This document shows positions 16,801 to 39,311 of a DNA stretch of 64,000 nucleotides, piece by piece. This stretch comes from a virus, in the IMG/VR virus record IMGVR_UViG_3300032116_000064, positions 37,538-101,537 of that record, one strand, 5' to 3'. The translations under genes were made by a program, and so were the position numbers. The number at the start of each line of letters is the position of its first letter. Within the stretch, counting starts at the first letter, position 1. The notes under the pieces were generated by a model. That model saw only the letters and a program-made list of their open reading frames with translations. It was not told the origin of the DNA and ran no database searches.

Positions 16801-17844
16801 AAAGAATCTATGGAATCTTTAATTAAGGGAGATGTAGAAGAATTTTTCAAGAAGCAATCAGCTGTTGGTGCTACAGCCGCAATTGCTAGTGGAGATACTC
16901 GTCTACAAAATTATTATGGTGCTGACGCTTTAGGCATGGCATATCAAGATATTCAACGTCAGCAAGAAGCCGGTGTTCAAGAATTATATGGTCAACAACT
17001 TGGTGGTGCCGGTGGATTAGTAGAAAGTGCTGCCGGTGCTGCACTATCAGCCAGAGGTGTAACTGATATGAGAGCAGCACAAGTTATGGCCGGTACTACA
17101 GCAGAAGAAGAAGCAAGTAAATCTAGATTAAGAGAACTTGGCGGTATGCTAGGAGAAACTGGGCAACTTGGAACAGAAATGGCAGAAATGCAAGTCACAA
17201 CTGCTACAATGAATGTAACAGCAGCGCAAGTTAAGTTTGATGAAACTATGGCAAGAGGAAGAGCAAAAGCAGAAGAAGGGTTGGCTTCTGAAAATAAGAG
17301 TGCTGCCGAATTCAAGTCTCGCGGCGGATTAATTTATGCAAGTCGTGGTATCTTCGTTCCTCGCGGAACGGACACTGTGCCAGCAATGTTAACTCCGGGT
17401 GAATTTGTGGTTAATCGCGCCGCTGTTCAACGTGATAATAACTTGCAAATTTTACAAGCAATGAATGGTAACTCTTCTCCTCCACCAGCCGCTGGGCAAG
17501 CAGTTGGAATGGCAAAGGGCGGAATGGTTCAATACTTCAGAGATGGAGGTCAACCTCAAGGTGGTGGTTCTTTTGCTGGAATGTTTGCGGGTATAACTGA
17601 TGGATTATCTAAATTTGCTACTTCTTTTGGATCACAAATATCTGAAGCCGTCGATAAACTTAAAGGTATTAATATCACATTAAGTTCTAATTCAAATGTC
17701 AATGTAAATATTAATGATAGTTCTGGATTGTTAAAAATGCTCAAAGAAGATACTAGAAAAGACATATTAGCAGCAATAGAAAGAGAGTTCAAGGATTCTC
17801 AAGGTGGATCACTTAAAAGAAATAGTTCAGTATTAGGATCATAA
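10807..17844 (+). CDS. Tape measure protein
   Basis: 2345 aa; TP901-type tape-measure core (RESAESIGTGLRTIFTRI), Ala/Gly-rich helical body, hydrophobic glycine-zipper segments, three DTVPAxLxPGEFV motifs. Confidence 0.9.
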   Translation: MSRFVLTAQLQLQAPNNVRQVVQQIQSQLQGVNVNVQIQNSPQAQRQLQQVTQQVNQATTAAERMGKAFALSIRRFAAFSVATRAVGLFTSTLNSAVNSAIDFERQLIKVSQVTGKSVGQLRGLTKQITSLSTGFGVASSDLLEVSTVLAQAGLTAEDTSIALKTLAKAALAPNFDSITETAEGAIAILAQFQQGVGALEQQLGSINAVAGAFAVEASDLIDVVRRTGGVFKASGGNLNELLALFTSVRATTRESAESIGTGLRTIFTRIQRPKTIEFLKQFGVELTDLDGKFVGPYEAIKRLSEALSGLGEGDLTFISIAEELGGFRQIGKVLPLLQQFSTAQSALNVAMKAGDSLTNDAASAQAALAIRIMKVKEEFLALIRSVTETSTFQVMANTALSLASALIKIGDSIKPLLPMLAALAAFKLVKGMGGFLGGMMSGATSGRAYNKGGKVLGFARGGLVPGSGNGDTVPAMLAPGEFVIRKSSVNKMGAGTLAAMNENRYENGGPMTTAQKLAMARGPQKTQSLGKKDKKAKYTSGRDKDELRFSVADGSIGAFFMNKEGTPDGLKPFKSKSFNITNSELLSLAGVKPYKNKGDKMAGKSDTFFAKGILEAGNIQTFYPSIGDIKSGSLSQIIQNNVKTKLSEAVASVANEVSSKKLLDIPPVDSNDALLSAAAKRIQSDAGAIRTTSGYLYEGVIDALTGARPASGNAVFDFPASSLQGNRQRLAALFGNAGAIGKLRQADAKASYSSKIIDGDMGSGSISSKIVNSINNGVLAGINVKKKFFGGPISKFAAGGGVGTDTVPALLTPGEFVVNRSSAQNIGYGNLNRMNKVGKYAKGGVVQRFAAGTSGTGAKSIVSDSNIPGFDIKAPTVLNKIISKLTGTFSVMDVSVEEGRKQFQVLKAVTPDLSKSLVDYANANNLSFKQAAQLSSAYSQLVTQMLKQGASSAVIQIRMQDYVDALTSGAKAIGTTASETASSSATSPASSAAATAATATTTNKAGGAVTSSNVKSKISGLADNGEIQREIAATAQEIKKTGSYSKVLSTSLEKQKQVTDGLYQESAALDARISAYDQALAKLATQQGKAAATGTAANRIVQMKMDAESKRIEVDQRALAEEQKFEGIQKKHQATIEKQTQLMDKQNALIQQAKSNKQAASQLTKDTLQGGTQSNFKDSDTRANSRADSWNQLQKQKADAISARENEFARARTANKERQSQRSGGLGSMMPSDVGGAAIAISMVTASLQAMLPPLDENSSALTTMSHSLLGLVTTVAGVAFALQAFGVELKAQSVMKFLGGGGLGTGGKKAVISAAQGLGFGRDATVGIMKTVNAISKIAGPLLAVAGGAYLAQQAFNVIAESIYNFDGRLKQSIESGDVEGAKTAAREKADFQQGSGAIGGVLAATAAGAAIGSFIPVIGTVIGGLVGLGVGILGVSSSFLTTTDSAVALAAAQAGAVKTQKALDEAQKVAATAMDDFKNGTISASEALAKIRAKTGEANAQMGRANTFATENLKNRSNAYSDSGFLRNVGALGGLNPFMETTGARNARLGKESADQINNAAKQQQEAFNIESPARQAAIRSGVARGKNINAVRAEATNGLQKQISEQRLLGNQLQSSGDEAGAKAAFAAASQMEAQLKQVNKEIENIEKEVKRQKELYDAMNLGLRSATATSSALSATMDRFSAGFEVGGSTLGSDIEFLQQSMSSAAQAMDPNEIKDAVSNVSSNLREFGVGEEYIKKFEGNVAAFTSAQQNYNKAFDNIKNSMAEADFKGLSSDEIKKKFADELTKGMDEEGAKSLKAAIGGMDLSDTDVDQIIAGDLSVFGNKLTEVQKKMFEDLQKIEQDRARAEQVLIDFTKKRIDAERNLVAAQQEALDLTLEGREVQAKYGGKAVSAEERRANILGKSNVEGNRLGLTAMRTGSIQELRARNAEIRGGFANVEARRTERGGMDRTAGVVADESQKDLEKAYKTQIETIRGLIKLEEEQLKITQEKNKLEKESMESLIKGDVEEFFKKQSAVGATAAIASGDTRLQNYYGADALGMAYQDIQRQQEAGVQELYGQQLGGAGGLVESAAGAALSARGVTDMRAAQVMAGTTAEEEASKSRLRELGGMLGETGQLGTEMAEMQVTTATMNVTAAQVKFDETMARGRAKAEEGLASENKSAAEFKSRGGLIYASRGIFVPRGTDTVPAMLTPGEFVVNRAAVQRDNNLQILQAMNGNSSPPPAAGQAVGMAKGGMVQYFRDGGQPQGGGSFAGMFAGITDGLSKFATSFGSQISEAVDKLKGINITLSSNSNVNVNINDSSGLLKMLKEDTRKDILAAIEREFKDSQGGSLKRNSSVLGS

Positions 17845-20800
17845 ATGAGTTGCTCAGTTTGTAATATAAATACTAATATTATCTTACAATCAGATAGTAA
17901 AATATCTGCTAATATATCTCCATTCAATCATGGCTTTTCTTGCCGTATATCTTCATCTGCTAAAGTTTCTTCTTCTGCTTCAATATTTAGAAATCTTACT
18001 CAAGCATTAACTAGTGTTGGAAAAGTAGTGGCTCATGAGAATGTTAATTTCTCTCCAAAGGAAGACTTATATGAATCCGCTGTTGGTAAAATTCTCGGGT
18101 CAACATCTGCCACACTTGGCGTAAATAATAGATTTTTGTCCTCTAGTAATTTTCAAACTACAAAAACTGATAAATTTAGTGGAAGTAAATTATCTTTTCA
18201 AGCATCATCTAAGCTATATCCTATTGGTGACATATCATTTAAAAATAAGTTTACTGATACCAACGTCAATATAAGCAATTCACAAGCTCAATCTACCAAT
18301 ATATATACAAGTATTGATGAAGGAATTTTTGCGGGTAATTACACTGATAATAATTCCAATGGATTTTTAACATCTGATGATGCTAGAAGTTTTGTATTTC
18401 TTAATCAAGCTCTTGCGTCTGGAGATTTAGAATACAAATTTAGAGTAACATATCCACTTGCTAATCCCAAGTTTAGCTATTTCGCTTTAAGGGCATATGC
18501 ACCATTTGACAATTATTTATTGAGAAGACCTCAGAGATACAAAATATATGATATTACTCTTAATGATCCAAGCGGCAATTTGATCATTAAGTATGATGAT
18601 ATATTTGTAGAAGGTGATAATAACTTTACTACATATATATCACAAGCTAATATAAATAAAGTGAATCAAACGACATGGAGTTCTGGTTATCCATACATGG
18701 ATTCTGGCAGTCCACTATTTTTAGAAAATAAACCATATACATGCAACTTTAGTGTATCTGTAGATTGTCCACAGCGTCCATTTGATGATCGATTTAATTT
18801 GGGTTACGAGCAACTATGTATCAAAGATGCCCCTAGTCCAAATCCATACAATGCATTGCTTATTTCTGCTATTGAGATTGGAAATAGTGGAGGTGTTGGA
18901 GTTCGAAAAGACAATGCATTGAACTGCTTTGTAAAAGTTCGGGACAAGTCTGAAAGAATTAAAAAAATAATATTACCAAATACATTGTTTACGAATGAGT
19001 TTAACAATGGTATATATCCAGAGGCTAGTAGCGTATGGAGAACGCCAGATTATGAACACAGTAATCAAGATGTATTGTCATCTAATACGCTGTTGCAAAA
19101 AATTAGACATGTAAATACGGATTATGGAGATTATATCAGTCTCAGCGGGTCATTACCAAATGTTGACAGCGGTAGATTAATTCTTAAATTTGATACGGAT
19201 CGCGATGAATTAAACGTATATGCTGGCGGTGCATTTAATTTTGGTGGAAATAAAGTCTTTGACGATGCTACAAAACAACAGTATCAATATCAAGACTACT
19301 TTGAAGTAGACTATGCTGAGTTAAAAGTTATAGCCCGCAAGCACCCTAGTAATTCTGATTATCCAATCGACATAGTTGGATATAGTGACGATAAGTTATT
19401 ATATGTCACTCCAGCCATTGGTGGATTCTTACAAAATAGTGGATCTTTACCCACAATCTCAAGTAGTATTCCAGATGTATCTGGTTTTAAAAAACCTAAC
19501 TTGAGTATTTCTAGCAGTAGTATATCTGATGGCAGTGAGTTTTTCTTGAATGATATATCTTCGCTGGGTGATCACTACGTACTAAATACTTCAATCTTAG
19601 TAGACAGTACATCATTTAAAGAATATATAATACCATTAGATATATATTCTGACCCAAATAAATTAGGATACAATAAATATTCTTTAAGTCCGTATTTTGA
19701 AAATCTATATATAGATATATGTCCGATACCTAGCGGGGCTTCTATAGCTCATGTTAGTTTGATCTTATATTACAAACCAGCCAATGCTCTACATCTTCAT
19801 ACTTTAGGTAGTCCATCTAACCGAAATGCTGTACAAAAAATAATAACACTACTACCAGATGGAAGCGGCACAATATCAAGCAACGAACAGCCTAGCGGAT
19901 TAGTAGTTGGATTCTCATCTCCTAGTTACTTATCTACCAATTTTGCCAGAAGGTGGAGAGGTCATACTGGAGATATATTTGTTGGAGGAGATTTTGACCG
20001 TGAAAGATTTGATTTCTCTTTTAATCATCAGCAGTCTGACGCTTTATTTTTAAATTCTTACATAGATTTTACAAACTGCGATGGTCAAAATATATATGAT
20101 CATAATAAAGTAGCGGTAGGGGCATCTATAAACGATGATTTAGATATATTAAGTAATTTTGGATGGAGATATTCTTCTCAGCAGCTAATTGATGGTATTA
20201 CAACAGATTATTCATCATTATCTTGGAACAACAGTGTATATGATAATTTTGATAGAGCTTTGCGTATTGGAAACGATTATGTAAATACCAATTTTTTGAC
20301 TAGCTCAAATAATGATTTTGTATTATTCTTTCGATATACTCCCGACAAAGTATCGAGCGGTGAGCTAAACAATCATTTAATAATGTGCTGCGAAGATGGA
20401 GATTGGTCTATTGCAATAGTTGTAGAGAATGAAAACTTAACACTAAAAGTAAAAAATACCAACTCCACAATATCTACAATAGTTGATACAATCAAAATTT
20501 CACAATATTCTTTCCCGCTCCCAATATTGATAACTTATAACAGTGCCACTAAAAAATTCAAATTATACACCGACAATCAATTGATAAAACCATTTGATCG
20601 ATTTAGAGGTGAAGTAACTATTAATTCATATAGTAGCAGTACAAACAATTTCTTTGGATATTCTAATTATTTTACATCACTTGGATCTATACCAATGTTT
20701 TTGCATGAAATTGGTTATTCAAGTGGTTGTCATATAGTAGATTCTAATCCTAATAGATTTTTAAATCAAATTACTGCAAATGATTTCTTTGATTCTTATA

Positions 20801-22350
20801 GTGTATTAGCATCTAATATAGATGATGATATATCTAGATGGAAGCTTGGTGCGTTTAAGATATGTAGTTTTTCATCAGATTTTGATTCCTACACAAAGCG
20901 AGAAGGAAAAGATTATATTACGTTTAGTCTAGACCATCCGGGTTCTGGATATTCTCAGTTAACAAATAAAACCTTACCATCCAACATACATTTATCTGGT
21001 GTATCTTATCATACTCAGATAGAAAATGATTTTTTGAGATTCGACATATCTGATATTCCATCTGAAGATCAATCAAGATTTTACGGGTTAGCTCCGCGTA
21101 TATCTAAAAATTTACCAAAGGGTTATGACTTTAGAGAAGACTCTCTTTGTGTTGATACTGTATTAGAGCATCATACTAATAATGATATTATTTGGCCAAA
21201 TGGAAAAGTTGGTCCTAAATTTATTGTAAGTATTTATGCGCCAACTCAAGAATCACAAGAACGTCCAAGTAAATCTCTTGGATTGGTAAACAGATCTATT
21301 CATTATCTTGAACCATCTGGGTGTATAAGAAAAATTACTAGTAAATTAACATTCAATGATATTTTAGATAAATCTGAACCTTGGGCTACATTTGATAGTG
21401 AATCATATTTTAATGAATTCAGAGATAAGTATCTCTTAAATGATGTCAATCAGATGTTCTTACAATATGATCTTGTTTACCCATCTGGTTCGCCTTATAA
21501 ATCTAAAGTCAAAATTCATAATACTAATATTAGAGCAAACAATGCAATTTATCTTGATGGCCACACTAGTGGAACTTTGTTCTTATATACAAGTGGATAT
21601 TATTATCAATTTAATACTTTAAATCTATTCACACCAGAAAATGGCCCACCTGTTAGTGGGTTTCCGCCACTCAATTTATTTGTTACTGGCCATGGACCAA
21701 CCGGCATACATAATAGTGGTTTGAACTTATTCGTTGACAATAGTAGCAGTGGATATTTTACGCCGCCAGAGATATTGAGTCTATATACTATTGGCAATGG
21801 TTCTATTGACAGTAGTGAACAAGTTTTTACTGGCATGTTTGGATCTCTACCATTTAGGGGTCTAGGTCTTAATGTCAGTGGGCAACTTATGAATGAAACT
21901 GTTATGCCACTCTATGTGTCTGGCATGGCATTTAATTCAAATGACTATTTAAATCTTTGTAATTTAGGACCGGAAGGTTATCAACCAGCTGATAATATAC
22001 TAAATTTACGTGTACGCGGAATAAATAGATCAATTAATGCATACCCATCTTCGGTTATGTCATTGCATATTTATAATGATCAACAATTTATTGGGAATAC
22101 ATCTAACTCATTTAATTTATTCTTATCTAGTTTCGATCCGGTTAAAACTAACATTTCTGGAAATTTGCCGCTGGTGACATTAAATTATCCTATCTCCGAC
22201 AATTTAGCCTCTAAAAGTGCTACAATAAAATGGGATAGTGATAACATTGGTCAGGGTATAACATCTGTAGATAATGTCTATGCATATGTCGATGCTGATG
22301 ATAATATAAGAGGAGTTAATTTAGCATGTTACGGAGACTGTAAAAAATGA
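17845..22350 (+). CDS. Large virion (tail tip) protein with a possible LamG-like domain and C-terminal LxL(F/Y)xxG repeats
   Basis: 1501 aa, S/N/Y-rich, directly after the tape measure gene. Confidence 0.6.
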   Translation: MSCSVCNINTNIILQSDSKISANISPFNHGFSCRISSSAKVSSSASIFRNLTQALTSVGKVVAHENVNFSPKEDLYESAVGKILGSTSATLGVNNRFLSSSNFQTTKTDKFSGSKLSFQASSKLYPIGDISFKNKFTDTNVNISNSQAQSTNIYTSIDEGIFAGNYTDNNSNGFLTSDDARSFVFLNQALASGDLEYKFRVTYPLANPKFSYFALRAYAPFDNYLLRRPQRYKIYDITLNDPSGNLIIKYDDIFVEGDNNFTTYISQANINKVNQTTWSSGYPYMDSGSPLFLENKPYTCNFSVSVDCPQRPFDDRFNLGYEQLCIKDAPSPNPYNALLISAIEIGNSGGVGVRKDNALNCFVKVRDKSERIKKIILPNTLFTNEFNNGIYPEASSVWRTPDYEHSNQDVLSSNTLLQKIRHVNTDYGDYISLSGSLPNVDSGRLILKFDTDRDELNVYAGGAFNFGGNKVFDDATKQQYQYQDYFEVDYAELKVIARKHPSNSDYPIDIVGYSDDKLLYVTPAIGGFLQNSGSLPTISSSIPDVSGFKKPNLSISSSSISDGSEFFLNDISSLGDHYVLNTSILVDSTSFKEYIIPLDIYSDPNKLGYNKYSLSPYFENLYIDICPIPSGASIAHVSLILYYKPANALHLHTLGSPSNRNAVQKIITLLPDGSGTISSNEQPSGLVVGFSSPSYLSTNFARRWRGHTGDIFVGGDFDRERFDFSFNHQQSDALFLNSYIDFTNCDGQNIYDHNKVAVGASINDDLDILSNFGWRYSSQQLIDGITTDYSSLSWNNSVYDNFDRALRIGNDYVNTNFLTSSNNDFVLFFRYTPDKVSSGELNNHLIMCCEDGDWSIAIVVENENLTLKVKNTNSTISTIVDTIKISQYSFPLPILITYNSATKKFKLYTDNQLIKPFDRFRGEVTINSYSSSTNNFFGYSNYFTSLGSIPMFLHEIGYSSGCHIVDSNPNRFLNQITANDFFDSYSVLASNIDDDISRWKLGAFKICSFSSDFDSYTKREGKDYITFSLDHPGSGYSQLTNKTLPSNIHLSGVSYHTQIENDFLRFDISDIPSEDQSRFYGLAPRISKNLPKGYDFREDSLCVDTVLEHHTNNDIIWPNGKVGPKFIVSIYAPTQESQERPSKSLGLVNRSIHYLEPSGCIRKITSKLTFNDILDKSEPWATFDSESYFNEFRDKYLLNDVNQMFLQYDLVYPSGSPYKSKVKIHNTNIRANNAIYLDGHTSGTLFLYTSGYYYQFNTLNLFTPENGPPVSGFPPLNLFVTGHGPTGIHNSGLNLFVDNSSSGYFTPPEILSLYTIGNGSIDSSEQVFTGMFGSLPFRGLGLNVSGQLMNETVMPLYVSGMAFNSNDYLNLCNLGPEGYQPADNILNLRVRGINRSINAYPSSVMSLHIYNDQQFIGNTSNSFNLFLSSFDPVKTNISGNLPLVTLNYPISDNLASKSATIKWDSDNIGQGITSVDNVYAYVDADDNIRGVNLACYGDCKK

Positions 22351-25300
22351 GTTATTGCACAGAAGCCATAGTAGATATTCATGGAATTAAGTGGTATTAT
22401 CCAGAGATATGTGTAGACGGTGGCGTATTTAGAGCTAAAAATACTTATACCAATCTTACATTTCCTAGTGGATCATTTAAGCATACTATAGATAGTAACT
22501 CATTGCAGTACATAGCGGCGGAAAATCAAAATATAATTACTACGGAAAATAATATTTCTTTTGTAACTGAAAGCACATATGACTCAGTTGTTTTTGATCC
22601 TATGCCATATAGTGGTCATTTTTACGGTATAAGAAAATATACTGGCTTGGCTCCCAACTTGCCCTACGTCGTTAATATAACAGGTAAATCTGGATCTTCA
22701 AACGCTATAAAGATTCCAACAGAAATTCTAGAAGTAGAGTACAATAAAAACGAAACTGACGAAATCAGCAATGATTATAGTGGATTTAGATTAGTTGATA
22801 ACGTTTTTGCCGGTGGAGAATATGGTAAATCTGTCGCGTCTAAAAATGATTTGTTAGCTATTGGATGTCCAAAGATGCCAGTTACATCTGGATCTACCAC
22901 ATATGAAGAAGCTGGCAAAGTATTCTTGTATAGAAGAGATGCCAGACCATCTACTGTTGATTGGCCGCTTGATAATTATAAGTCAGAATGGAGTCTTGAG
23001 ACAGAATTAACTTTACCATCTGGATTGCTAGGTGATTATGCGATAGAGTCAAATATTTTTATCAATGGGTTGCCGTCTGATTTCACTGGTGTACAAACAT
23101 CATGGTTTGTGGGTCAGGACGGAAGACAGTTTGGACATTCTGTAGATCTCTCTGTAAATGAAAATATAAAATCTTTAGGAGAAGATAAACAAGAAATATT
23201 GGTAGTTGGTGGAGTTGGTGCAAGATGGACAAGAACTTTTGAAGATGATCCACCATCTAAAGTATCTATTGGTTTGATGATTTTTACTGACGAGTTTAGT
23301 TATATTTTACCGGACCCATCACCCGGTGCGCCTTGGAAAGTAAAAACATATGAAAATATTTTGTCTAGCATAGCTAATAAAGATTTGGTATTCAACTATT
23401 TTTCTGATCCTAGAGTAGAGTTTGATGTCAAAATTATTGTTTGCGTACCAACCGCTAACTCTGACGAATCTGATCCCGTCTTTCCAGAAAAACCGGATTT
23501 TATTACATTAAAACGTATAAGTAAAAACTTTGGATACCCATTATCAGAGTCCTCTATTAATGGAACATTGAGTGGAATTACTTCTTCATTTTTGGAAGCT
23601 TTTCCTTACAACAATAGTATAAATAGTGGGATTCCACCGATGCTAGGTATTTGTATCGATGGAAGTTTTTCAATGGGTGGTAGAGAAGCCTTAGAGCCAG
23701 CATTAGATAGATTCATTGACTTTTATCAGAAATATAGTTTTGCTAGTGGGTTAAAAGACTTTTATGGCGTTCAATCATCTGGAATAGTATATGAATATTT
23801 GACAGAAGGCGATACTGATTGGATAGACATGTCCAAATTGATTTTAGGTGAAGTTCTAGATACTGGACGATTAGTTGAAAGTAATCAAGTAAGATTTTTC
23901 TCTAATAATGTCGGAACATTTAACAAGTATGACAAAAATTTTAACATCCCACCAGACAGTGGTGGAAAAGTATATATTTTTGAAAAAGAAAGTGGATCAT
24001 GGAATTTAATTCAAGCAATTTCTTCTCCCAATGTAACAAGAGATTACAATGATAGATTTGGACACGCAGTTAGTATAAGTGATGACGGCGAACTTGTAGT
24101 AATTGGTTCTCCATATATCAATCAAGCAGTCATGATGTATGAAAGGAATTACGAAGCGCGTAATTACTTTTACAACTATCAAATTGCTGATTGGGTTGCA
24201 TCTAAAAGGTCAGACAAGTATTCTAAACAGCTTGCGGCATATTACAGTAAGCCTCAATTATTAGAAGACAAAAAAGCTCTATATCTATCATTAGATCCAG
24301 AAGACAAATTTCAAGCTAGATTAGATAATAATGTAGAAGAATATCAAAATATATATACATTTGATTATAGCAATATGCAACCGGCTGGTGGCTGGTCATT
24401 TGTCGCACAAGAACACGCACCAACTTCTAGACTAGGTTATAGTGTAGACACCAATGAAAATGGCACAGTAGTAGTAGCTGGCGCACCAACGGATAGTCTT
24501 AATTTTCATAACAATGCAGATGTTTATTATAATACAGATGGACATGCACCAAATGGAAAGACTTTACAAGCTAGATATCTAGGATCCGAAGGAATTCCCG
24601 CTGGTAGAATTCATCCATCTTGGTCAGCAAGTTTGTATACAGGGTCAGTACACGTATTTGAATCTAGAAAATATTATCCTCATAACAAAGCTATTGAGTA
24701 TGGTAAGTTTGGAAATTTACATGAGAATATTAGTTCAAACACGGCAGATTCTGGACACTTTAATTATTTAGCTCAAATTTTTTCTGACAAAAATTATGTA
24801 AAAACTCAATTCGATGATTCTGAAATTCCGCAGGATGCTGGATTGATCTTTATAATAACGCCAGCGGTTTCCGCTCTTAGTGAAGAAATCTTGGATAAGA
24901 TTAAAAATTGGTTAGCACTTGGAGACAGAAATTTAGTATTGGTTGGAAATGATCCAAGGTGGGAAGCCAATGGAATATATTCTCAATCAAACAACATCTT
25001 AAATGATTTGTTATCTAAATTACAATCTAGAATGAGAATTGTTCCAGCTAGAAATGAATATGAATCACTTCCAAGTGGATACTCTTCATTTAACAATATT
25101 GTTCCATCTTTTACTCCACAAGGATTAACAAGTACTTATGTAACAAGATCTCCAGTTAGAGGTAGTGGTGTTGCTGACATCAAAATATATTATCCATACT
25201 TTGAAGAAATGCCCTGCAAAGAAGTTGATGATTGTTCAATTGATCAAACAAAAATACAAATACAAACCAAATGTCAGATGCCATTAAAAAATTACGGAGA

Positions 25301-28300
25301 CTTAAGGGCAGAATGGAATGCTTCTTGTTGTACAAATGGTGGATTATTAATATATGGTTATAATTGGCCTTTAATATTTGGATCATATACTCCAGCCTGT
25401 GGGGATGTAGCCTTTGAACCAAAACCAACTAAAAATTTTGAACCGATACCAATACTAGTAGCAGCTGAAAAAGTAAAACAAGAAATTATATATCCAGCCA
25501 TACCTGCGGTTTCTGGAACACGTATTGTCTACGATACAATTACAGCAGGTTCTAATAACTATTATGAATTTGGTTCTCCTATGAGTGAAGAGCTTAACTT
25601 CGCTTTTAGTTCTGGCAGCAGGGTTGGTCATGACTATAACAGCATTTTATACAATATTAATAACAGAACCAATACTCCTTTATTTTATATTCCAACAGAC
25701 GAACTTGGCGGTGTTTTACAAGCTAAAGGTTCTCCGAAAATTGATATTACACCATATTTGTCTAGAGAAGAAATTTCAGATAAATCATATTTTGCTTTAG
25801 AATACTCTTACAAAAATCAACCAACTTCTAAAATTGATATCATACCTAGTCTTGTTATAGAGTCTCAATTAAAACAGGGATCAAATGATGAAAACATCTT
25901 ATTCTATCAAAATTTAATTTCTTTTTCTAAAACTGTATTTGGACGATCATATATAGCGCAGTTGAATTGGAATGGATGGGAGTCTTTTTATGATGCATAT
26001 AGCAATTCTTTGTTAAAAGATGCTTTAGGTGCAGATAATAATATTACATATAATGTTAATGTTTTAGATAGCACTTATAACGTCGCATGGTTACCAAACT
26101 TAATTTCTCAACCTTCTAACTCGCAAATTGATAATCTATCTCTTTGGTTATTATTGGGAAATAGAAGATTGATAATTACTTGCGATAATACAATATCTAG
26201 TATTATTCAAACAAAGACATTCCTAGAGAAGTTAGGTATAAATTTGGAATTATTGCAAAAGTATAATGGAGAATATCCACTATCTGGCTTTGGTTCTTTT
26301 TCAATAAATCAAAATCATCAAATAGGTGGTCAATACTTTAGTAATGTTAAAAACAAGAAAATAAATTATTTTTCTGGTAATGGATCATTTTATCCATTCA
26401 AATTAAATGATGGTGCTGTTCCGCTAGCATATATAGATTATCCTGTTTATGATGAAATTCCAAAAGAATACAACAATGATAACTGGGATATTAATGCCGG
26501 TATTGTAAAAATAAATGTACCAGTACTGCCGGGATCTGGATATAGATTATTTGTTACTACAGACTCTCAAGATCCCGCCGAATCACATGCCCTAACTGTT
26601 AATGTCGATAAATCATCAGTAACTCCAACCGGAACATATCCAGATTTAGGTACAATTGGAATATATGAGCTGGATGAAAATAGAAGTTTATTTGAATCTC
26701 AAACTATTAATACATCATTCAATACAATAAATTGTGGCGGCGGAACATGCTTTCAAGATTTTCAAGTCTCTAATACTGATAATGTAAACATTTATGTTTC
26801 ATGTGTCATGCCTAGATTAAAAAATGATAAATCTCCAAAAAGTGTAAGATTAATCGGCATTTCGGGAGTATTAATACCTATTTATGAAAAAGCAGTTGTA
26901 TCTACCATTGATGTGCCTGTAGGAATTTCATTTTATAGAATTTCTGATCCAGTAGAAGAAAGTCGTGAAATTGTTGAAGTTGTTAGAACAATTAGTACAG
27001 ATAATACAAAATATTGTAAATCTGGATGTGAGTTTTTGGGAAATCAATTAATAGAAGATGGTCCAGTTGTAGTAGCACAAGAATTAGAAATTTTTTCTGA
27101 TTTTGATGCTGGATTTGCTAGATCTAGAATAACAGTCATAACTGACTCTAGTATTTTACAAGGCAGATATGTTACTGAAAATAATGTTATTCCACAAGAC
27201 ACATATTCATTTATTAGAAGCTTGTATCCAGAAACAGAATTCTTTTCAGAAAATGCTGGTAGACAATTTAATGTATATACCAAGTTAACTTCATCAGAAC
27301 GTGGAAGTCCAAATAAATATCATTCTAAAGCACCTTATCTTGGCATTAATAAAAATTTTGGTAACTATCCAAATCTGCCATCAGCACCAATAAATTCTTA
27401 TGAATCTCAATACATTCCTAAGTATATTGTTGGGGCAGCATTACCATGGGATGGAGAAACTGATCCAAAAAAGATAGAAGAGATAAAATTATATGCAATA
27501 AGTGGATTTTTACCTAAACAAATTAATCATTCTACTACTTCACGAATTAGTGGAGTTATTGATGGCGTTTCTTACGCTGATGCAACTATTGGCGGTGGAG
27601 TTCCCGCTATAGTAAAAGACAAAGGTTATGATTATCTAGATTTTGATAAGTTCCCATCTGGTTATGTTGGAGATTTATTTGGATATTCTGTTTCTGCCCG
27701 TGGCAATAAAATACTAATTGGATCTCCATTTTCTGCCTTTGATTCAGAATCATTAAATGCTTGGGGAGATAATACCCCTCTGCGTTTGGGTCAAGATGGT
27801 GGTGCCGGTGCAGTATACATGTTTGAAAAATCTTCAGAAAACAAATGGGAAAATACTAAAAAGATTAGACCTAATTCATTGATGGGACAACTTAGTGGAG
27901 TGGGAATTTATTCAGACCATTTCGGTCATTCAGTTGATATGCAGAATGACGTTATTATAATAGGATCGCCAAATCATAGTTATGGTAATTACTACGATTT
28001 TTATTATGACGATGGAGCTTTTGCTAGGAAAAATTTTAACCCTCAGTTTGATATACCACAATTATCTATTTATGATCTAGGAGATTCTGGAATAAGAGAT
28101 CAGCTTAACATAGATAATGCATACATCAATAACATTGGTGCTATATATGTATATGAAAATAAAATTACAGATTGGGAAAACAAAACTCAATCTTGGAAGT
28201 TAGTAGAAAAATTGGTTTCATATCCATATAATCCAGATGGAGACAATTACGCAAAGGGAAGCGGAGAAAGGTTTGGAAGAGACATATACTTGTCTCGTCC

Positions 28301-28943
28301 ATATAGAAGCGATGCCGACTATTGCATAATAGCTGGATGCAATTTTGCATCTGGATCTATGCTAAATGTTGGTGCTACTTATGCTAAGGACATTATGCTT
28401 AAATCTCAAAGACCTTCTATACCAAATAGTGGGGCTTGGATATCTGCAAAAGTCTTTGGTGACAGAGATCAGTATGGTAATCCATTCGCATCATTATACT
28501 TTACTAATATTGGTGACAATACACGATATCATGCTAGTGGTAGTGTAATCACAAATAGCAAAGGTGAAATATTCCTAGAGGTATCTGGGCAAGACCCGTC
28601 CACAAAAGGCTTTATTTCTCATAGACCATATATTGAATCAATTTATGGATATTATCAATATGGTAAGCTAATAAATGATACATTAAACTTACATATTAGC
28701 GGCGGTCACATACCGCCAAGCTCTCAATTACCCCTTCTTATAAGTGTCGAAAATTCAGCATATGTGTATAATACATTAGGATTGTATAGCGATGTAAAAA
28801 CCGGGGATGCTGATTCTAGCCTATCCGGTATGCCATTATTTGCACAGGTTTCTTCTGGAACCGCACTTGAATCTTTAGGCTTATATACTAGCGGGATAGG
28901 AAGTCCAAGCGACAATCTTAACTTAAGTGTAAGAGGTAAATAA
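22347..28943 (+). CDS. FG-GAP seven-bladed beta-propeller adhesin-like virion protein with inserted domains
   Basis: Seven (F/Y/L)GxxV-type blade starts at 22821, 23130, 24057, 24432, 27678, 27921 and 28272, with matching GxVY(I/L/M)(F/Y)-type strands; DGSFS motif at 23658. Confidence 0.75.
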   Translation: MSYCTEAIVDIHGIKWYYPEICVDGGVFRAKNTYTNLTFPSGSFKHTIDSNSLQYIAAENQNIITTENNISFVTESTYDSVVFDPMPYSGHFYGIRKYTGLAPNLPYVVNITGKSGSSNAIKIPTEILEVEYNKNETDEISNDYSGFRLVDNVFAGGEYGKSVASKNDLLAIGCPKMPVTSGSTTYEEAGKVFLYRRDARPSTVDWPLDNYKSEWSLETELTLPSGLLGDYAIESNIFINGLPSDFTGVQTSWFVGQDGRQFGHSVDLSVNENIKSLGEDKQEILVVGGVGARWTRTFEDDPPSKVSIGLMIFTDEFSYILPDPSPGAPWKVKTYENILSSIANKDLVFNYFSDPRVEFDVKIIVCVPTANSDESDPVFPEKPDFITLKRISKNFGYPLSESSINGTLSGITSSFLEAFPYNNSINSGIPPMLGICIDGSFSMGGREALEPALDRFIDFYQKYSFASGLKDFYGVQSSGIVYEYLTEGDTDWIDMSKLILGEVLDTGRLVESNQVRFFSNNVGTFNKYDKNFNIPPDSGGKVYIFEKESGSWNLIQAISSPNVTRDYNDRFGHAVSISDDGELVVIGSPYINQAVMMYERNYEARNYFYNYQIADWVASKRSDKYSKQLAAYYSKPQLLEDKKALYLSLDPEDKFQARLDNNVEEYQNIYTFDYSNMQPAGGWSFVAQEHAPTSRLGYSVDTNENGTVVVAGAPTDSLNFHNNADVYYNTDGHAPNGKTLQARYLGSEGIPAGRIHPSWSASLYTGSVHVFESRKYYPHNKAIEYGKFGNLHENISSNTADSGHFNYLAQIFSDKNYVKTQFDDSEIPQDAGLIFIITPAVSALSEEILDKIKNWLALGDRNLVLVGNDPRWEANGIYSQSNNILNDLLSKLQSRMRIVPARNEYESLPSGYSSFNNIVPSFTPQGLTSTYVTRSPVRGSGVADIKIYYPYFEEMPCKEVDDCSIDQTKIQIQTKCQMPLKNYGDLRAEWNASCCTNGGLLIYGYNWPLIFGSYTPACGDVAFEPKPTKNFEPIPILVAAEKVKQEIIYPAIPAVSGTRIVYDTITAGSNNYYEFGSPMSEELNFAFSSGSRVGHDYNSILYNINNRTNTPLFYIPTDELGGVLQAKGSPKIDITPYLSREEISDKSYFALEYSYKNQPTSKIDIIPSLVIESQLKQGSNDENILFYQNLISFSKTVFGRSYIAQLNWNGWESFYDAYSNSLLKDALGADNNITYNVNVLDSTYNVAWLPNLISQPSNSQIDNLSLWLLLGNRRLIITCDNTISSIIQTKTFLEKLGINLELLQKYNGEYPLSGFGSFSINQNHQIGGQYFSNVKNKKINYFSGNGSFYPFKLNDGAVPLAYIDYPVYDEIPKEYNNDNWDINAGIVKINVPVLPGSGYRLFVTTDSQDPAESHALTVNVDKSSVTPTGTYPDLGTIGIYELDENRSLFESQTINTSFNTINCGGGTCFQDFQVSNTDNVNIYVSCVMPRLKNDKSPKSVRLIGISGVLIPIYEKAVVSTIDVPVGISFYRISDPVEESREIVEVVRTISTDNTKYCKSGCEFLGNQLIEDGPVVVAQELEIFSDFDAGFARSRITVITDSSILQGRYVTENNVIPQDTYSFIRSLYPETEFFSENAGRQFNVYTKLTSSERGSPNKYHSKAPYLGINKNFGNYPNLPSAPINSYESQYIPKYIVGAALPWDGETDPKKIEEIKLYAISGFLPKQINHSTTSRISGVIDGVSYADATIGGGVPAIVKDKGYDYLDFDKFPSGYVGDLFGYSVSARGNKILIGSPFSAFDSESLNAWGDNTPLRLGQDGGAGAVYMFEKSSENKWENTKKIRPNSLMGQLSGVGIYSDHFGHSVDMQNDVIIIGSPNHSYGNYYDFYYDDGAFARKNFNPQFDIPQLSIYDLGDSGIRDQLNIDNAYINNIGAIYVYENKITDWENKTQSWKLVEKLVSYPYNPDGDNYAKGSGERFGRDIYLSRPYRSDADYCIIAGCNFASGSMLNVGATYAKDIMLKSQRPSIPNSGAWISAKVFGDRDQYGNPFASLYFTNIGDNTRYHASGSVITNSKGEIFLEVSGQDPSTKGFISHRPYIESIYGYYQYGKLINDTLNLHISGGHIPPSSQLPLLISVENSAYVYNTLGLYSDVKTGDADSSLSGMPLFAQVSSGTALESLGLYTSGIGSPSDNLNLSVRGK
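28764..28779 (+). promoter_or_regulatory. Putative internal late promoter
   Basis: GTGTATA atacat TAG, about 180 nt upstream of the 28943 gene. Confidence 0.4.
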
Positions 28944-30793
28944 TGCTAGCTGTTTATTATGATGAATCTACCCCCTGTCTCATTAGACCCACTCCACTTA
29001 TTTCTATAACTCAAAATGTTATTAGAAATAAAGCCGGTATGCTTGGTAGTTATTATGATATAACTCTTAATGGTACTATTCTACCAGATGAAGGTAGCCC
29101 ATTTTATATAATTGGCGGTGGATCAACTTCTCACAATTCACCAGCGACGGTACAGTCTGCATTCCAACAAACTTATGCTAGACCGGCAACTGAAGCAGTT
29201 CATTTTGATAATGCTATGAGTTCTATAATTCATAAGCAAAATATGCTTAGAGAATTATTTAAAAGAGATGGACAACTTTGCGAATTATTACCTGTTAGTA
29301 ATAGGCCGGAATCAGATAGCGCAATGACAGATACCCCAATTTTGAAATTTCACCCAACAGTTCAGTCTATATCTTTTGAAGAGGGTGCTTATATCACAAA
29401 TTGCAAATATACTATTAATTTACGCGCAGAGGTTTTGTTAGATAATAGCAATAAAATTATATCAGATGGTATTACTAATTCTACTATAAGTCCAACTGGT
29501 TCAAGTAGAATACCAATAAGATCAAATGACAGAAATTTGACATTACTAAATGCTTTAGATGCTAGCGGGTTTATTGAAGATTATAGTGAAAGCTGGTCTT
29601 TGGAAGTAGAAGAGGGAAATGGAACTACTAATACTAACGTTGCTAATCCAACAATTTTGCCACCTAATCATATAGGATCTCTTAGAACTTATCGTGTTAC
29701 AAGAAATATTACGGCCACTGGTCGTACTATGTATTACACTGAAAACGGTACAGGTCCAATCAAACGGCGAGAAGCTTGGGAGCAAGCCAAACAGTACATT
29801 TATAATACTGTACTTAAAGATAATGATAATGTTTCAACAAATAATTCAACTGGTTATGAGCAATTTCCAGAATATAATTTAGGTCCATATTTTGGTAGCG
29901 GATTTTTAAATATTGCTAAAACTATATGGGGAGGTTATAATCATTTACGAACAGAATCAATAGATACCACTGCCGGAACCATTACTGTCAATGATACTTG
30001 GTTAATGTCTAGTGGAAATGCTTATGAAAATTTTAATATGGGAGTATCTAAAAGTTATGATAGTGCTTTACATAAAGTTACTGTCAATGGAAGCATCAAA
30101 GGATTATCTAGCGTACATGCTGGATCAACTCAATATGGCGGATCCAATGCTAGCACACAGACGCAATTTGGAGTTGCCCCTCTAAACACTGCCCATGAAA
30201 ATGCTCGTTATAAATGGAATCAAATAAGTAACAGTGGTACTTATGGCCCCAATTGTTATTTGTACCGTCGCGCACAGTCCGTCTTACATTTACCTCTTAA
30301 CTTTATACCATTATCCGTATCACTATCTAGTAATCAATTTACTGGAGAGATCACTTACGATATTGAATATGATACTAGATTACAAAATATTGTTAGCGGG
30401 GCTTTGTCGGAAAATATCACTTGCAACGATACTTACCCCGGCGATGTATTTGCAGTTATACCGGTCATTGGCAGACAGCACGGTCCAGTTTTACAATATA
30501 TAGGCGGAAGAACAGAATATCAACGAAACTTAAGTATTGAATTAGTTATGGATAAATATTATACATCTGGTGCTGGAACTCTTGTTAATAGAATTAGACA
30601 ACAATCAGTTTTATCAAAACCAAGTTTAAATGAACCATTTAAAACTCAAATTAATTCTATTATACATGCTTATAGTCCTATACAAGAAGCAGGAATAAGA
30701 AAATATTTTGTTAGCCCGCCATCAGAAAGTTGGGATCCAAGTACTGGAAGATATTCATTACAAATCAACTGGACATACGAGGTAGGAAGATAA
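28943..30793 (+). CDS. Putative distal tail/baseplate-hub-like protein
   Basis: 616 aa; beta-strand pattern ending ESWDPSTGRYSLQINWTY; TAATG coupling on both sides; positional inference. Confidence 0.45.
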   Translation: MLAVYYDESTPCLIRPTPLISITQNVIRNKAGMLGSYYDITLNGTILPDEGSPFYIIGGGSTSHNSPATVQSAFQQTYARPATEAVHFDNAMSSIIHKQNMLRELFKRDGQLCELLPVSNRPESDSAMTDTPILKFHPTVQSISFEEGAYITNCKYTINLRAEVLLDNSNKIISDGITNSTISPTGSSRIPIRSNDRNLTLLNALDASGFIEDYSESWSLEVEEGNGTTNTNVANPTILPPNHIGSLRTYRVTRNITATGRTMYYTENGTGPIKRREAWEQAKQYIYNTVLKDNDNVSTNNSTGYEQFPEYNLGPYFGSGFLNIAKTIWGGYNHLRTESIDTTAGTITVNDTWLMSSGNAYENFNMGVSKSYDSALHKVTVNGSIKGLSSVHAGSTQYGGSNASTQTQFGVAPLNTAHENARYKWNQISNSGTYGPNCYLYRRAQSVLHLPLNFIPLSVSLSSNQFTGEITYDIEYDTRLQNIVSGALSENITCNDTYPGDVFAVIPVIGRQHGPVLQYIGGRTEYQRNLSIELVMDKYYTSGAGTLVNRIRQQSVLSKPSLNEPFKTQINSIIHAYSPIQEAGIRKYFVSPPSESWDPSTGRYSLQINWTYEVGR

Positions 30794-31209
30794 TGCCAAC
30801 AGATTCAGAAAATATTAATAATAATCCATCAGAAGGATTAGATGCTAACGATAGTCGTATATCTCCTCAATTAACAAATGATATGCGAGGAGTAACCTAT
30901 GGACTTACTTATGATGCGGTGTCTGTTGCGCGACCTCCTAGCCCAATAGCACCTAATGGCTTGACATTTGAGACTGTTGGAATTTCTAATGGGTATGCAT
31001 CTAGAGTAAATGGGATTACTGATTTTAAAGAGTATAATGACTATATACATTACGCACCGATTGGAAGTGCTGGTGCTGTTGGTTCAGCATTAGGAGGTGC
31101 TGGTATAACTAATGTTTCTATGGGCAGTAGCCCAAGATTTAATGTATATAATTCTTTGATAACAGCCTCTTTTAGATTTGAAATGTATAGTAGACAGTAT
31201 AGGGTTTAA
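30793..31209 (+). CDS. Hypothetical virion protein
   Basis: Start reassigned to the ATG at 30793 (TAATG overlap with the upstream stop); 138 aa. Confidence 0.6.
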   Translation: MPTDSENINNNPSEGLDANDSRISPQLTNDMRGVTYGLTYDAVSVARPPSPIAPNGLTFETVGISNGYASRVNGITDFKEYNDYIHYAPIGSAGAVGSALGGAGITNVSMGSSPRFNVYNSLITASFRFEMYSRQYRV

Positions 31210-31210
31210 C

Positions 31211-34200
31211 ATGACTAGAACAGAACTAACATCTGGTATTTATGGTAATCCTAACCCAGTTCCTATACCATACGCTGGTATTGTAAATAATGGTCAAATT
31301 TCTTCTATAATACCAGCTAGTGGATTTTATGGCACATCTTGGCCTAGTAAAAGTGGTAGTGTCATACCGCAAGGTTTAGGTGGTGGAGGTTGGACGTTAG
31401 ATGCAACTACACCAAAGACTTATGATAGAGGCTATCCGCAGCAAACATTCTTAGGAGCTTCCATAAGAAATTTCAGCATGAATGGTGGATTTGGAGACAG
31501 TAGCTCATCTCTTTCTGTTGACCTAGTAGTTGATGAATATAACAAGTCTGACAACACCGCTCAAGGACAAGGAGATGATGTTTATCATAGTGGAAATGGT
31601 GATGGGTTTGTTCCTCCAATGGCTGGAAGCCCCGTATTTTTTAAATTTGGATCTAACTTTGCAACTGTAGAAGAAGCTTACGTGTACACTTTTGATACTA
31701 TATATAATACTAATACATTAGAGGCAGTTACTATTACTGCAAATGGATCATTTAACAAAGATAGTTTTAGATCTTTGGCTGCAAATCAATATGTTAATTT
31801 AGAAAATAATACAATATATGATTTTAATAATGCAGTAACTAGTCCCGGCAGAGGTTCTGGTCATATAGTCTTTGGTGGTATATTACAATCTTATGTTCAA
31901 AACCGTGGTCCCGGTGGAAATCCATTGTATTCTGTACAAGTTACTGACCCCAGAGAAATTTTATCTAATGTCGTGGTAGTCTTGAATAATTATGCTGGAA
32001 GTACATTCAATACTAAAAACATATTTAATGTTTATGGATTTTTAGAGCATAATTTTTCTACAGAACTTTCTGGACAATTAAACTCAGCTTTTGGTGGGTT
32101 TAATTTGTTAAAAAAATATGTAAATCCAACTAATGGTTATGTCACATATAGCGGATCGATTAGCGCAAGTGATCCAATGGATTCTTGGATTGGTCAAAGC
32201 GAAGGATTATTTCCGGCGTTTGGATCTTCTAAGCCGTCCTTTCCATATACTGGAACTGGTATGTCCAGAAGAGGACCGCAAGGTATGCCCTTCTACAGAT
32301 TAGTACAGGGAATGAATGCTTTAATGTCATTAGAATATACTTTGCCTCAAGAATATATCAATAAGGGATATGGCGGTCTTATCAATTTTAGAGGATATAA
32401 CTATGTTGTTGATTTCAGCGGACTTCCCACATTGCCTACAATGTACTATTTAGATTTTGATCAAATCAATTTATTAGATTTAGCCTTAGAAGTATGCGAT
32501 GTAGCTAGTAGAGATTTATTTGTTTCTTTGCTTCCGGTTATAAATCATCCAGCTTGTCAATATATATATAACAATCAAAGTTCGGATCCAAACAAATTAA
32601 TTGCTGGTATCATCAGATTGTCTAGCATAGACCGATCATCTCCTCCTGTATATGGTGCTATTAAAAATTATATAGATAGTCTGTCTGGTGTTGGTATTTT
32701 AGTTGAAAATCAAGATGTTGGATATGAATTGTCCAATGTAACAACTGACAAATTTGTAGTTGGTGCGCAAGAAGTTGATATGTATTGTTTTTCTACCAAT
32801 ACAGATAGAGGTATGGCAAATGCAAGAAGCAAACGTAGCGGCGGTGAGGGCGACGATGCCGATTGGAAACAATGGACACTTGAAAAACAGGTCGAACAAC
32901 AAGTTTTGCCGTATTATGGTATGCTTGGACAAAATGCAATTAGTATACCAAAGGGCTGGGGATCATACCAACAAATACTATTAGATACTACTGGATTAAA
33001 TGTAAAAGGGGTTGGTGCATATTATGTTGCTACAGAGATGGAATTACGATGCGCGTCAGTATCTTATGAGTGTTGGAAAAATTTTCTACAACAATATAAT
33101 GATACGTATTTAGAATCTATAGAAGATGGTGATACATTTGAGGGTGCTGCCCTTAGTCAAACTCCAAATTTTGGAGGTGTTCCCGCTCGACCAATAGCCA
33201 GTAACTATGCAGTTACTGTTCCTCGTTCTGTTTTTGATACATATGCTCCAAGTGGATTGCGATTTGGATCTGATGGTTTACCATCTAGCTCCTGCAATCC
33301 GCCATATGGATATCCATTATATTATAAACGAATGACAAAACTTGGAATACCAGAGGGTGGGTTAACCAAGCTACAATCTAGAATAACAGGCATGATAACA
33401 GGTGCCGCTTCTATTAGAGGTGCGGATGCTGATACTTGGGATGATGTTAGAAATACACAATTAGCAGAACTAGAACAAATAAATTACGGCGAACTATCTC
33501 AACAAGAAAAAACATATTATGATGCTATTAAAAATGCATTAAATCAAACTCCTCCCAACTTAGATTTACTCAATAATGTGGAAGATGGACTACATAGGAT
33601 CGGAGCGGTTTTGCCACGTTTAGCTAAAAAGGGTACAGAAAATGCTTTAAAAGTTTATGAATTTATTAAAAAAGTAGCGGATGATAACTTAGGTAAAAAA
33701 TTCTTAGTGAAAATTCCTAGCAAAGTCAATTTACATTATGAAGACTCTATAGCATGGAATGGTAACGCAGCCGGTGGAGAATATGCAACTGGACCATTTG
33801 GATTCAAACCTAGACCAGTAACTTCTGGTATTAATGAAGAATTTTCTGAAGCATTTAAAGAAATTGTCAGAGGAGATAGACGAGGATCCATGAATTCTTT
33901 TCTGACCAGTGGAATTGATGACAATCAAAACAAATACGTTGGAGCATTAAGAGTAAATTTTAATCCCGTTGCTGATAAATATGAATTTAATTATACTCCA
34001 ACCAATTTAGGCGGTTACTTTCCATTTGATCTTTATACAAATACTTTGAGTGTTGCTCAATTACAATCCTTACCAGACTCTGTTGTACCAAAAGCTGTAT
34101 ATCAATTGTTAATTCCACAAGATGCTACTAATTTTTTGGATGAAAATGGTAGATTATCGGCATATGTTAGATTTGATCATAGTCAACACTTAGCAGTAAA

Positions 34201-38900: not shown

Positions 38901-39311
38901 GACGAGGAGAATGAGGGGATTGAGGCTTACGGAGAAACCTCAAATAATGGAACTAGTAATCCATTTTTTAGTGGACCAATTCCAGCTACATTACCATCTA
39001 CTGGTGGTATTCCTGCTATTATCAAATTAAACAGCGGAAAAGTAATAGAAAAATTGGTTACAGATAAAATAGGATTTTATGGTGCCAAAAAAATTACTCC
39101 AGAAGATAATAATGGAGAAGGAAATAATCGTGGTTTCGTTACTGGCACTAAAACAACAACTTTTTCATTAAGCAAAAATGATACTGGAAAATATGATATT
39201 TTTCTATTTTTTGCCAATGATATATTGAATTATCCAGAGGCTGGAGTTACATGGGAAGGGTACTCTGTGCCACCAGCAAGATATGTTAACTTAGAAATAA
39301 CGTCAATCTAA
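35943..39311 (+). CDS. Putative tail spike/fibre protein
   Basis: 1122 aa, G/N/S-rich, IESGGTGY motif near the C-terminus, follows the hub gene; AAGGA RBS. Confidence 0.5.
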   Translation: MTEFFNSRSGSSVRNYHYYVTSDKKLHDIGLASYTRNSIEKFGKRRKNGREENDPDISEYLSGGLDSIKPKLIGDSATLIIYRFEKDTKRYLYTTNSGSDEDNIFWTPSGSNGTGGGTVYNTLQLFQEKFDLFQKGWIKDDGSLEAYNIKYIWSKINNSLSGCINFDVNGYSILTTASSGVVSLFLQSKGDGNNRSLAFQPPVVAGVGMTATGRQHAFNLSENLGPGAFSAPDVGGIKNPNNTVAGPLRMHFNRGTGEWESGTTQTYCKLLDDLPGVSLADLPLNVDNVDNESLKTPFNSGIAMVMSTEKGNPHLCVPCSMGCNTSEKEKIILVNRSPRSYVKGEICLASQINGDWVPVPLTNGSSVAKKLTIEWSQIQKYIVNAKGFFRNYNDTRFLEPSNYQDHVRSRFYDSLPSTSFTDNVANNDLGRLRLLNLYYTGDSDKIEYSLNSNGSINMGGINDSAINNFTSYSLNNFPSLNYMQFYDADIITKDLGGNNAGPNRLLNTVIKRTEIYDADTGVAANSVPVSWGMYFPNGYASAGVTRTRDIKSATSANPSMKIYDPGSLNFNQYTNTVQVGKFNLKDVYFYHMPAQIALNSSRNQTLQMSKLVLAMIPKSTYCDSLIKYMMDPIKGDWIKASGGKDVYALSPTDSTNLQFTPLSVELALSDTYIKNEGLGSQRAINGGYSNLAANLTVIGANKAGFSADAGFFGKAWTRMELTSRPQLEADGSVEGRISFCNRLSNGVDFSTIGPPVRADTPDGGPELLPNASTNESSNVMGIIGTKGTFSLPNGGAIELKTSNMLGMLAYSKTNIAGGGFSSFFTGLSLFIQDLGGQNRTFDIVQWGGSLGTDQIKELGSTALWCAVYDHCPDTIYDSRYFTPMQFNASGTSVDFEEVTLSPGTPVQTQKTIPTRKNKIRRNMLLTNGGFTYIKKVIGASPTSIVIESGGTGYKENDPVTFSIGTKPAKFIISEISGNGGITGLTLDEENEGIEAYGETSNNGTSNPFFSGPIPATLPSTGGIPAIIKLNSGKVIEKLVTDKIGFYGAKKITPEDNNGEGNNRGFVTGTKTTTFSLSKNDTGKYDIFLFFANDILNYPEAGVTWEGYSVPPARYVNLEITSI

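Follow-up and report, generated by a model that had tools for sequence, protein, structure and literature searches.

Does a giant protein encoded by an uncultivated virus share the organization of integrin alpha subunits, which carry a von Willebrand factor A (vWA) I-domain, with its DxSxS metal-ion-dependent adhesion site (MIDAS), between propeller blades 2 and 3? The question was raised by an earlier note on a DNA stretch of 64,000 nucleotides (the window), corresponding to positions 37,538 to 101,537 of the IMG/VR virus record IMGVR_UViG_3300032116_000064, a record of 101.5 kb with an estimated completeness of 64%. The note described one 2198-amino-acid (aa) protein of the window as a phage tail protein with seven FG-GAP blades and an inserted vWA-like domain. 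The gene in question is the following:

22347-28943, plus strand: whole gene (P0001), 2198 aa, a single open reading frame without internal stop

The analysis presented here supports a seven-bladed FG-GAP propeller, closed in the model, that is interrupted by two inserts. The first one (insert 1) is predicted to be an alpha/beta domain, and the second one (insert 2) contains GIFT-like domains and beta-sandwiches resembling carbohydrate-binding modules (CBM). The protein is probably a giant tail-tip adsorption protein, in which the closed propeller would display both inserts.

Seven FG-GAP motifs and a predicted closed propeller

A pattern search located the starts of the FG-type motifs at aa 159, 262, 571, 696, 1778, 1859, and 1976, that is, at nucleotides 22821, 23130, 24057, 24432, 27678, 27921, and 28272. 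The starts of blades 2 and 3 (23130 and 24057) were recovered at exactly the coordinates proposed before. The combined FG...GAP pattern gave seven matches; in 2000 shuffles it gave 0.0125 on average and never more than 1. All seven motifs were conserved in 57 aligned relatives. Together, this confirms the number of blade starts given in the earlier note. Moreover, the protein matched the Pfam family PF14312 (FG-GAP_2) with an expectation value (E) of 1.3e-14 and 54.6 bits, the cut-off being 23, and this family is also on record for all of the listed homologues. The motifs are unevenly spaced, with about 300 aa from blade 2 to blade 3 and about 1080 aa, the largest gap, from blade 4 to blade 5. 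The size of this largest gap had been understated and insert 2, which lies in it, had been passed over. The propeller is thus encoded by three segments:

22764-23231, plus strand: blade 1 and strands 1-3 of blade 2 (aa 140-295), containing two FG motifs (aa 159 and 262)

23961-24686, plus strand: last strand of blade 2, followed by blades 3 and 4 (aa 539-780), containing two FG motifs (aa 571 and 696)

27594-28406, plus strand: blades 5-7 (aa 1750-2020), containing three FG motifs (aa 1778, 1859, and 1976)

The closure of the ring was analyzed by predicting a two-chain complex between aa 130-780 (blades 1-4 and insert 1) and aa 1745-2079 (blades 5-7), with an alignment of 47 rows for each chain. 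The prediction scored 0.80 and the best of three controls 0.00; with this method, 58 of 80 solved complexes attain the score mark, as do 2 of 110 mismatched pairs. The runs agreed in at least 85% of the contacts, and the predicted local distance difference test score (pLDDT) of the partner was at least 67. Confident contacts were obtained between blade 4 (aa 687-718 and 763-770) and blade 5 (aa 1774-1793), and between blade 1 (aa 130-172) and blade 7 (aa 1979-2018). Since these are both of the junctions that a single seven-bladed ring needs, the model supports one closed ring assembled from two distant stretches of the sequence. The closure into a single propeller, on which the proposal of the earlier note depended, is therefore supported by the prediction.

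The later blades were also searched for Ca2+-binding loops of the type Dx[DN]x[DN]GxxD; no full match was found in them, and one partial loop, DTNENG, was detected in blade 4. Profile searches of both propeller halves, insert 1, and insert 2 against the PDB sequences gave nothing significant and only marginal single-motif matches to integrins, the best one for the propeller profile being integrin alpha-6 (E 0.015), over a single FG-GAP motif.

Insert 1, an alpha/beta domain with a conserved DxSxS loop

The insert between the FG motifs of blades 2 and 3 and its most conserved loop are located as follows:

23244-23951, plus strand: insert 1 (aa 300-535, about 235 aa), inside repeat 2, an alpha/beta domain with the order b-a-b-b-a-b-a-b-a-a, confined to this protein family

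23658-23672, plus strand: DxSxS loop (D438, S440, and S442), with the family pattern [DE]x[ST]xS

The segment LGICIDGSFSMGG, at nucleotides 23643-23681, contains the DxSxS exactly where it had been described. An AlphaFold2 (AF2) model of aa 288-548, obtained with an alignment of 47 sequences, reached a pLDDT of 87.5 and a predicted template-modeling score (pTM) of 0.83, and places the DxSxS in the loop that connects the strand of aa 432-437 to the helix of aa 452-466, in agreement with the strand and helix proposed earlier. The three positions of the loop are highly conserved among the relatives (D/E in 57/57, S/T in 57/57, and S in 56/57), and further conserved polar residues, D315, K/R393, D471, and D505/T506, were found at the ends of strands or helices.

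In vWA domains, the DxSxS follows the first (betaA) of six strands. In the model of insert 1, compared with vWA in unpermuted order, it follows the fourth of five strands (model residues 145-150) and only one strand (193-198) comes after it. No Pfam match to VWA was obtained in the whole 2198-aa protein at E values up to 0.1, and just one of the 47 insert sequences gave a match (E 0.14). PF00092 was not found anywhere in the virus record at E values up to 10, and the controls matched in 14/14 genomes. Likewise, no vWA protein was retrieved from the PDB sequences with the insert 1 profile, nor from 1.84 billion representative proteins with a hidden Markov model (HMM) of insert 1; this last search detected 99 proteins that, in their lengths and in the place of the match, are consistent with members of this giant family or with pieces of them. 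When insert 1 was compared with the PDB by Foldseek, no match had E <1e-3 and only weak flavodoxin-like and esterase rows were obtained, and the 50 best entries of the VIA wide search included no vWA chain. The profile-profile comparison by hhalign, in which VWA was represented by one subfamily only (26 sequences: YfbK and YegL from E. coli and 24 relatives), aligned 22 columns around the motif, with a probability of 0.85% and an E value of 0.065.

We conclude that the resemblance of insert 1 to vWA is real but local, limited to the motif, and that insert 1 has an alpha/beta fold specific to this family. According to the model it is a Rossmann-like alpha/beta domain with no detectable vWA domain, and hence this part of the earlier proposal was not sustained. 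An assignment of insert 1 to the SGNH esterases was also considered and discarded because the domain has no conserved His.

The [DE]x[ST]xS loop would lie at the C-terminal end of a central strand, where Rossmann-like folds usually have their ligand or metal site. It is conceivable, if rather doubtful, that insert 1 is not a vWA domain and yet forms, with this loop and other acidic and hydroxyl residues, a divalent-cation site completed by a ligand from the host, in the manner of a MIDAS; such a site would be compatible with the adsorption function favored here. The motif is conserved in relatives down to 31% identity, D315, D471, and D505/T506 are conserved as well, and a location at the C-terminal edge of the parallel sheet is the textbook one for Rossmann-like folds. 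On the other hand, Glu replaces Asp in 15 of the 57 relatives, and the conserved Lys/Arg 393, which follows a strand neighboring in sequence, would suit an anionic ligand better than a cation.

Insert 2, with GIFT-like and CBM-like domains

Insert 2 comprises the following regions:

24687-27593, plus strand: insert 2 (aa 781-1749), between blades 4 and 5, with several domains (AF2 pLDDT 83.1)

24699-25226, plus strand: GIFT-like domain A (aa ~785-960), including a weak DUF4350 match

25311-25844, plus strand: beta-rich region 1 (aa ~989-1166), part of a CBM/jelly-roll-like match

25854-26246, plus strand: GIFT-like domain B (aa ~1170-1300), a paralogue of domain A

26415-27002, plus strand: beta-rich region 2 (aa ~1357-1552), CBM/jelly-roll-like

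27048-27242, plus strand: strands completing the GIFT fold (aa ~1568-1632, GPVVVAQE...RITVITDSS), within the reach of the IFT52 alignment and with invariant residues

The AF2 model of aa 735-1775 had a pLDDT of 83.1 and a pTM of 0.48, a value expected for a chain with several domains. When this model was compared by Foldseek, the N-terminal (GIFT) domain of IFT52 was matched with a probability of 1.00, and a GIFT or class-I-amidotransferase-like fold was thus recognized in insert 2. Since the IFT52 alignment spans model residues 45 to 898, GIFT fold A seems to be built from aa ~785-960 together with aa ~1568-1632, with the other domains nested between them. The two GIFT copies, A and B, were related to each other by hhalign (probability of 96%, E 3.8e-9). 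The fold result agrees with PF14258, on record for at least 10 homologues, and with a DUF4350 match in the 2198-aa protein (E 0.0045; 17.7 bits, under the cut-off of 30.4). A comparison of insert 1 with both GIFT copies by hhalign was not significant (E 0.15-0.45) and did not identify insert 1 as a third copy.

The CBM-like sandwiches resemble modules of tail fibers and host-specificity proteins, according to fold matches that include entries of BFVD. Compared with the GIFT domains of IFT52, GldG, and OST48/Wbp1, the phage protein has two copies, which are nested in a propeller loop and interrupted by beta-sandwiches. According to PMC7226087, which cites Beatson and Ponting (2004), sugar binding is a proposed function of GIFT domains. 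No description of a GIFT domain or of an FG-GAP propeller in a phage tail was found in the literature searched. With respect to the uncharacterized protein Aaci_0196 from Alicyclobacillus acidocaldarius (PDB 3RAG), the identity was 12%, with no detectable sequence relation, and no literature on 3RAG was found.

Relatives and the split gene

A collection of proteins clustered at 90% contained 138 relatives of the 2198-aa protein, and 62 related loci, with 27-67% identity, were found on IMG/VR contigs. When clustered at 50% identity, the family amounts to 99 clusters or more, and the viral contigs that carry it reach ~175 kb. Most of the relatives have ~3700 aa, which equals the sum of the 2198-aa protein and the 1501-aa protein encoded just upstream. 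The regions involved are:

17845-22350, plus strand: upstream partner gene, 1501 aa, overlapping the 2198-aa gene by ATGA

22347-22763, plus strand: N-terminal region of the 2198-aa protein (aa 1-139), with invariant C4, H12, W16, and C22

28407-28943, plus strand: C-terminal region (aa 2021-2198), with LxLY..G repeats and LNLSVRGK at its end

In the ~3700-aa relatives the frame remains open for more than 1000 codons upstream, and the C-terminus of the 1501-aa protein (...IRGVNLACYGDCKK) aligns with the fused relatives without interruption, just before the CTEA...H...W...CVDGG of the 2198-aa protein. All of the split relatives are cut at the identical place and retain an ATGA or TAATG overlap of stop and start. 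The open frame, the unbroken alignment, and the conserved overlap therefore indicate a functional unit of ~3700 aa, present here as two translationally coupled chains. These observations suggest that splitting or fusion has occurred repeatedly at a domain boundary, with translational coupling. The 2198-aa gene would then encode the larger, C-terminal part of a tail-tip or adsorption protein of ~3700 aa. The split loci (L001, L005, L014, L017, L021, L024, L057, and L061) belong to several lineages, with 31-68% identity to the window.

Other features of the junction were also observed. A run of six A residues directly precedes the ATGA (TGT AAA AAA TGA, 22342-22350), and a -1 slip on it would fuse both proteins; as a general mechanism this frameshift was discarded because the other split relatives, which all have the stop/start overlap, lack this run of A residues. 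A pattern rich in Cys and His extends across the split site (22300-22420), with CYGDC at the C-terminus of the 1501-aa protein followed by C4, H12, and C22 of the 2198-aa protein. Close relatives have all of these residues, which might form one common cluster, with Zn or disulfides, that joins both chains. Additionally, LxLYTSG-type repeats ending in LNL(R/S)VRG occur in both genes, at 21577-22005 (aa 1245-1392 of the 1501-aa protein) and at 28683-28940 (aa 2113-2197 of the 2198-aa protein), and the C-terminal parts with these motifs showed a marginal mutual similarity (BLASTP E 0.088).

Genomic setting and proposed function

The assignment to the tail derives from a gene located upstream on the same strand:

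10807-17844, plus strand: tape-measure gene, 2345 aa, with matches to Pfam PhageMin_Tail (E 1.9e-24) and to PHROG tape-measure families

The 2198-aa gene is the second one after the tape-measure gene, and this order, together with the viral origin of the record, fits a tail protein, as the earlier note had also assumed. The phage would be an uncultivated, siphovirus-like one with a genome of perhaps ~160 kb. To judge from the size of the tape-measure protein, the tail would be unusually long. After the tape measure, no gene was recognized as Dit- or Tal-like. Further large open reading frames follow the 2198-aa gene, at 28943-30793 (616 aa), 31178-35929 (1583 aa), and 35943-39311 (1122 aa), and no Pfam or PHROG family was matched by their products. 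In PHROGs, no family was found for the 2198-aa protein or for its four large neighbors, and tblastn of this protein against 50,697 INPHARED phage records gave no match.

In the function that we consider most probable, blades 1-4 (aa 140-780) and blades 5-7 (aa 1750-2020) would form the core of the propeller, a rigid scaffold for the two inserts. Insert 1 would expose its [DE]x[ST]xS loop, and insert 2 would contribute its two paralogous GIFT domains, of the IFT52/GldG/OST48 type, and the CBM-like beta-sandwiches, so that surface polysaccharides of the host might be bound in a multivalent way during adsorption. Phage receptor-binding proteins (RBP) with beta-propellers or CBM modules are already described in PMC4901313 and PMC6115969. 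The RBP of phi11 and the lactococcal and streptococcal host-specificity proteins likewise have propeller or beta-sandwich modules at the tail tip for cell-wall glycans; in contrast with the protein analyzed here, their propellers are not FG-GAP propellers with nested inserts and the proteins are far smaller.

Several points weigh against this function. The position in the virion is deduced from the gene order, because PHROGs and INPHARED gave no match. The ring was modeled as two chains and not with the whole protein folded in one piece, and the good score of its closure may partly reflect a likeness to solved propellers such as those of integrins. The domain limits within insert 2 are approximate, given its pTM of 0.48. 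Finally, the GIFT domain of IFT52 serves protein-protein contacts, and a GIFT fold is no proof of sugar binding.

This last point leads to a different view, in which the propeller and its inserts are only a scaffold bracing the tail-tip complex by protein-protein contacts, and receptor binding falls to the downstream proteins of 616, 1583, and 1122 aa. The GIFT domains of IFT52 and OST48 do sit within large protein assemblies, according to PMC7226087 and to the titles of the matched structures; moreover, three further large proteins of no matched family are encoded downstream, and the protein is fused or coupled to another one of 1501 aa. We regard this view as improbable, since the CBM-like sandwiches are akin to modules typical of host-binding parts, and the relatives diverge down to ~30% identity with the architecture kept, as occurs in surface-exposed recognition proteins.

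Comparison with integrins

With the I-domain integrins (alphaL, alphaM, alphaX, alpha1, and alpha2), the phage protein shares the seven FG-GAP repeats, the closed propeller, which is a prediction for the phage, and an alpha/beta domain with a strand-DxSxS-helix motif between FG motifs 2 and 3, as well as an adhesive role, presumed in the phage. By contrast, its sequence relation to integrins is limited to single FG-GAP motifs, its inserted domain has no detectable vWA, its propeller lacks a full integrin-type Ca2+ loop, and insert 2, of about 1000 aa, has no counterpart in integrins. Furthermore, the sequence pattern places insert 1 inside repeat 2, before the last strand of this repeat. The integrin-like organization put forward in the earlier note is therefore upheld for the repeat count, the modeled closure, and the interval that holds insert 1. 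It does not extend to the kind of domain inserted, the Ca2+ loops, the sequence relation, or the second insert.

A bolder proposal, which we consider speculative, is that uncultivated large phages reached an integrin-like design independently. The propeller would show an unrelated alpha/beta domain, and the DxSxS-type loop of this domain would use a metal ion to bind a ligand of the host, being thus a convergent counterpart of the MIDAS. The propeller would also carry GIFT domains that read glycans, and these would be the first ones from a virus.

A genuine vWA/I domain bearing a MIDAS, located as in the I-domain integrins and belonging to a metal-dependent, integrin-alpha-like adhesin, is a very unlikely identity for insert 1. 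The strand-DxSxS-helix motif is real and conserved, its placement between FG motifs 2 and 3 is that of integrins, and hhalign pairs it with the betaA-DxSxS segment of VWA. In addition, the ten best named clusters of an ESM Atlas feature search with insert 1 were all VWA (score of 0.91), with 104 of 256 features shared, a number in the range that the tool assigns to chance matches or distant relatives. This language-model look-up is the sole pointer to vWA for the domain, and the order of the strands and the family and profile searches described above argue against a vWA domain. Equally improbable is an enzyme, either a depolymerase or a deacetylase of surface polysaccharides, with an active site of the propeller, class-I-amidotransferase-like, or esterase-like kind.

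Significance

The parallel with integrins is architectural, and there is no evidence of a shared ancestry of the inserted domain. Tail adhesins decide the host range of a phage, and this family, with no match to any characterized protein of phages, represents an unusual way of building an adhesin, with a propeller formed from two stretches ~1000 residues apart that serves as a hub for nested domains. The split or fusion at one fixed site illustrates how giant virion proteins can be partitioned. Moreover, a sugar-binding role of GIFT domains has so far only been proposed for IFT52, GldG, and OST48; if the GIFT and CBM-like modules do bind glycans of the host, these phages would offer a natural test bed for the function of the GIFT domain.

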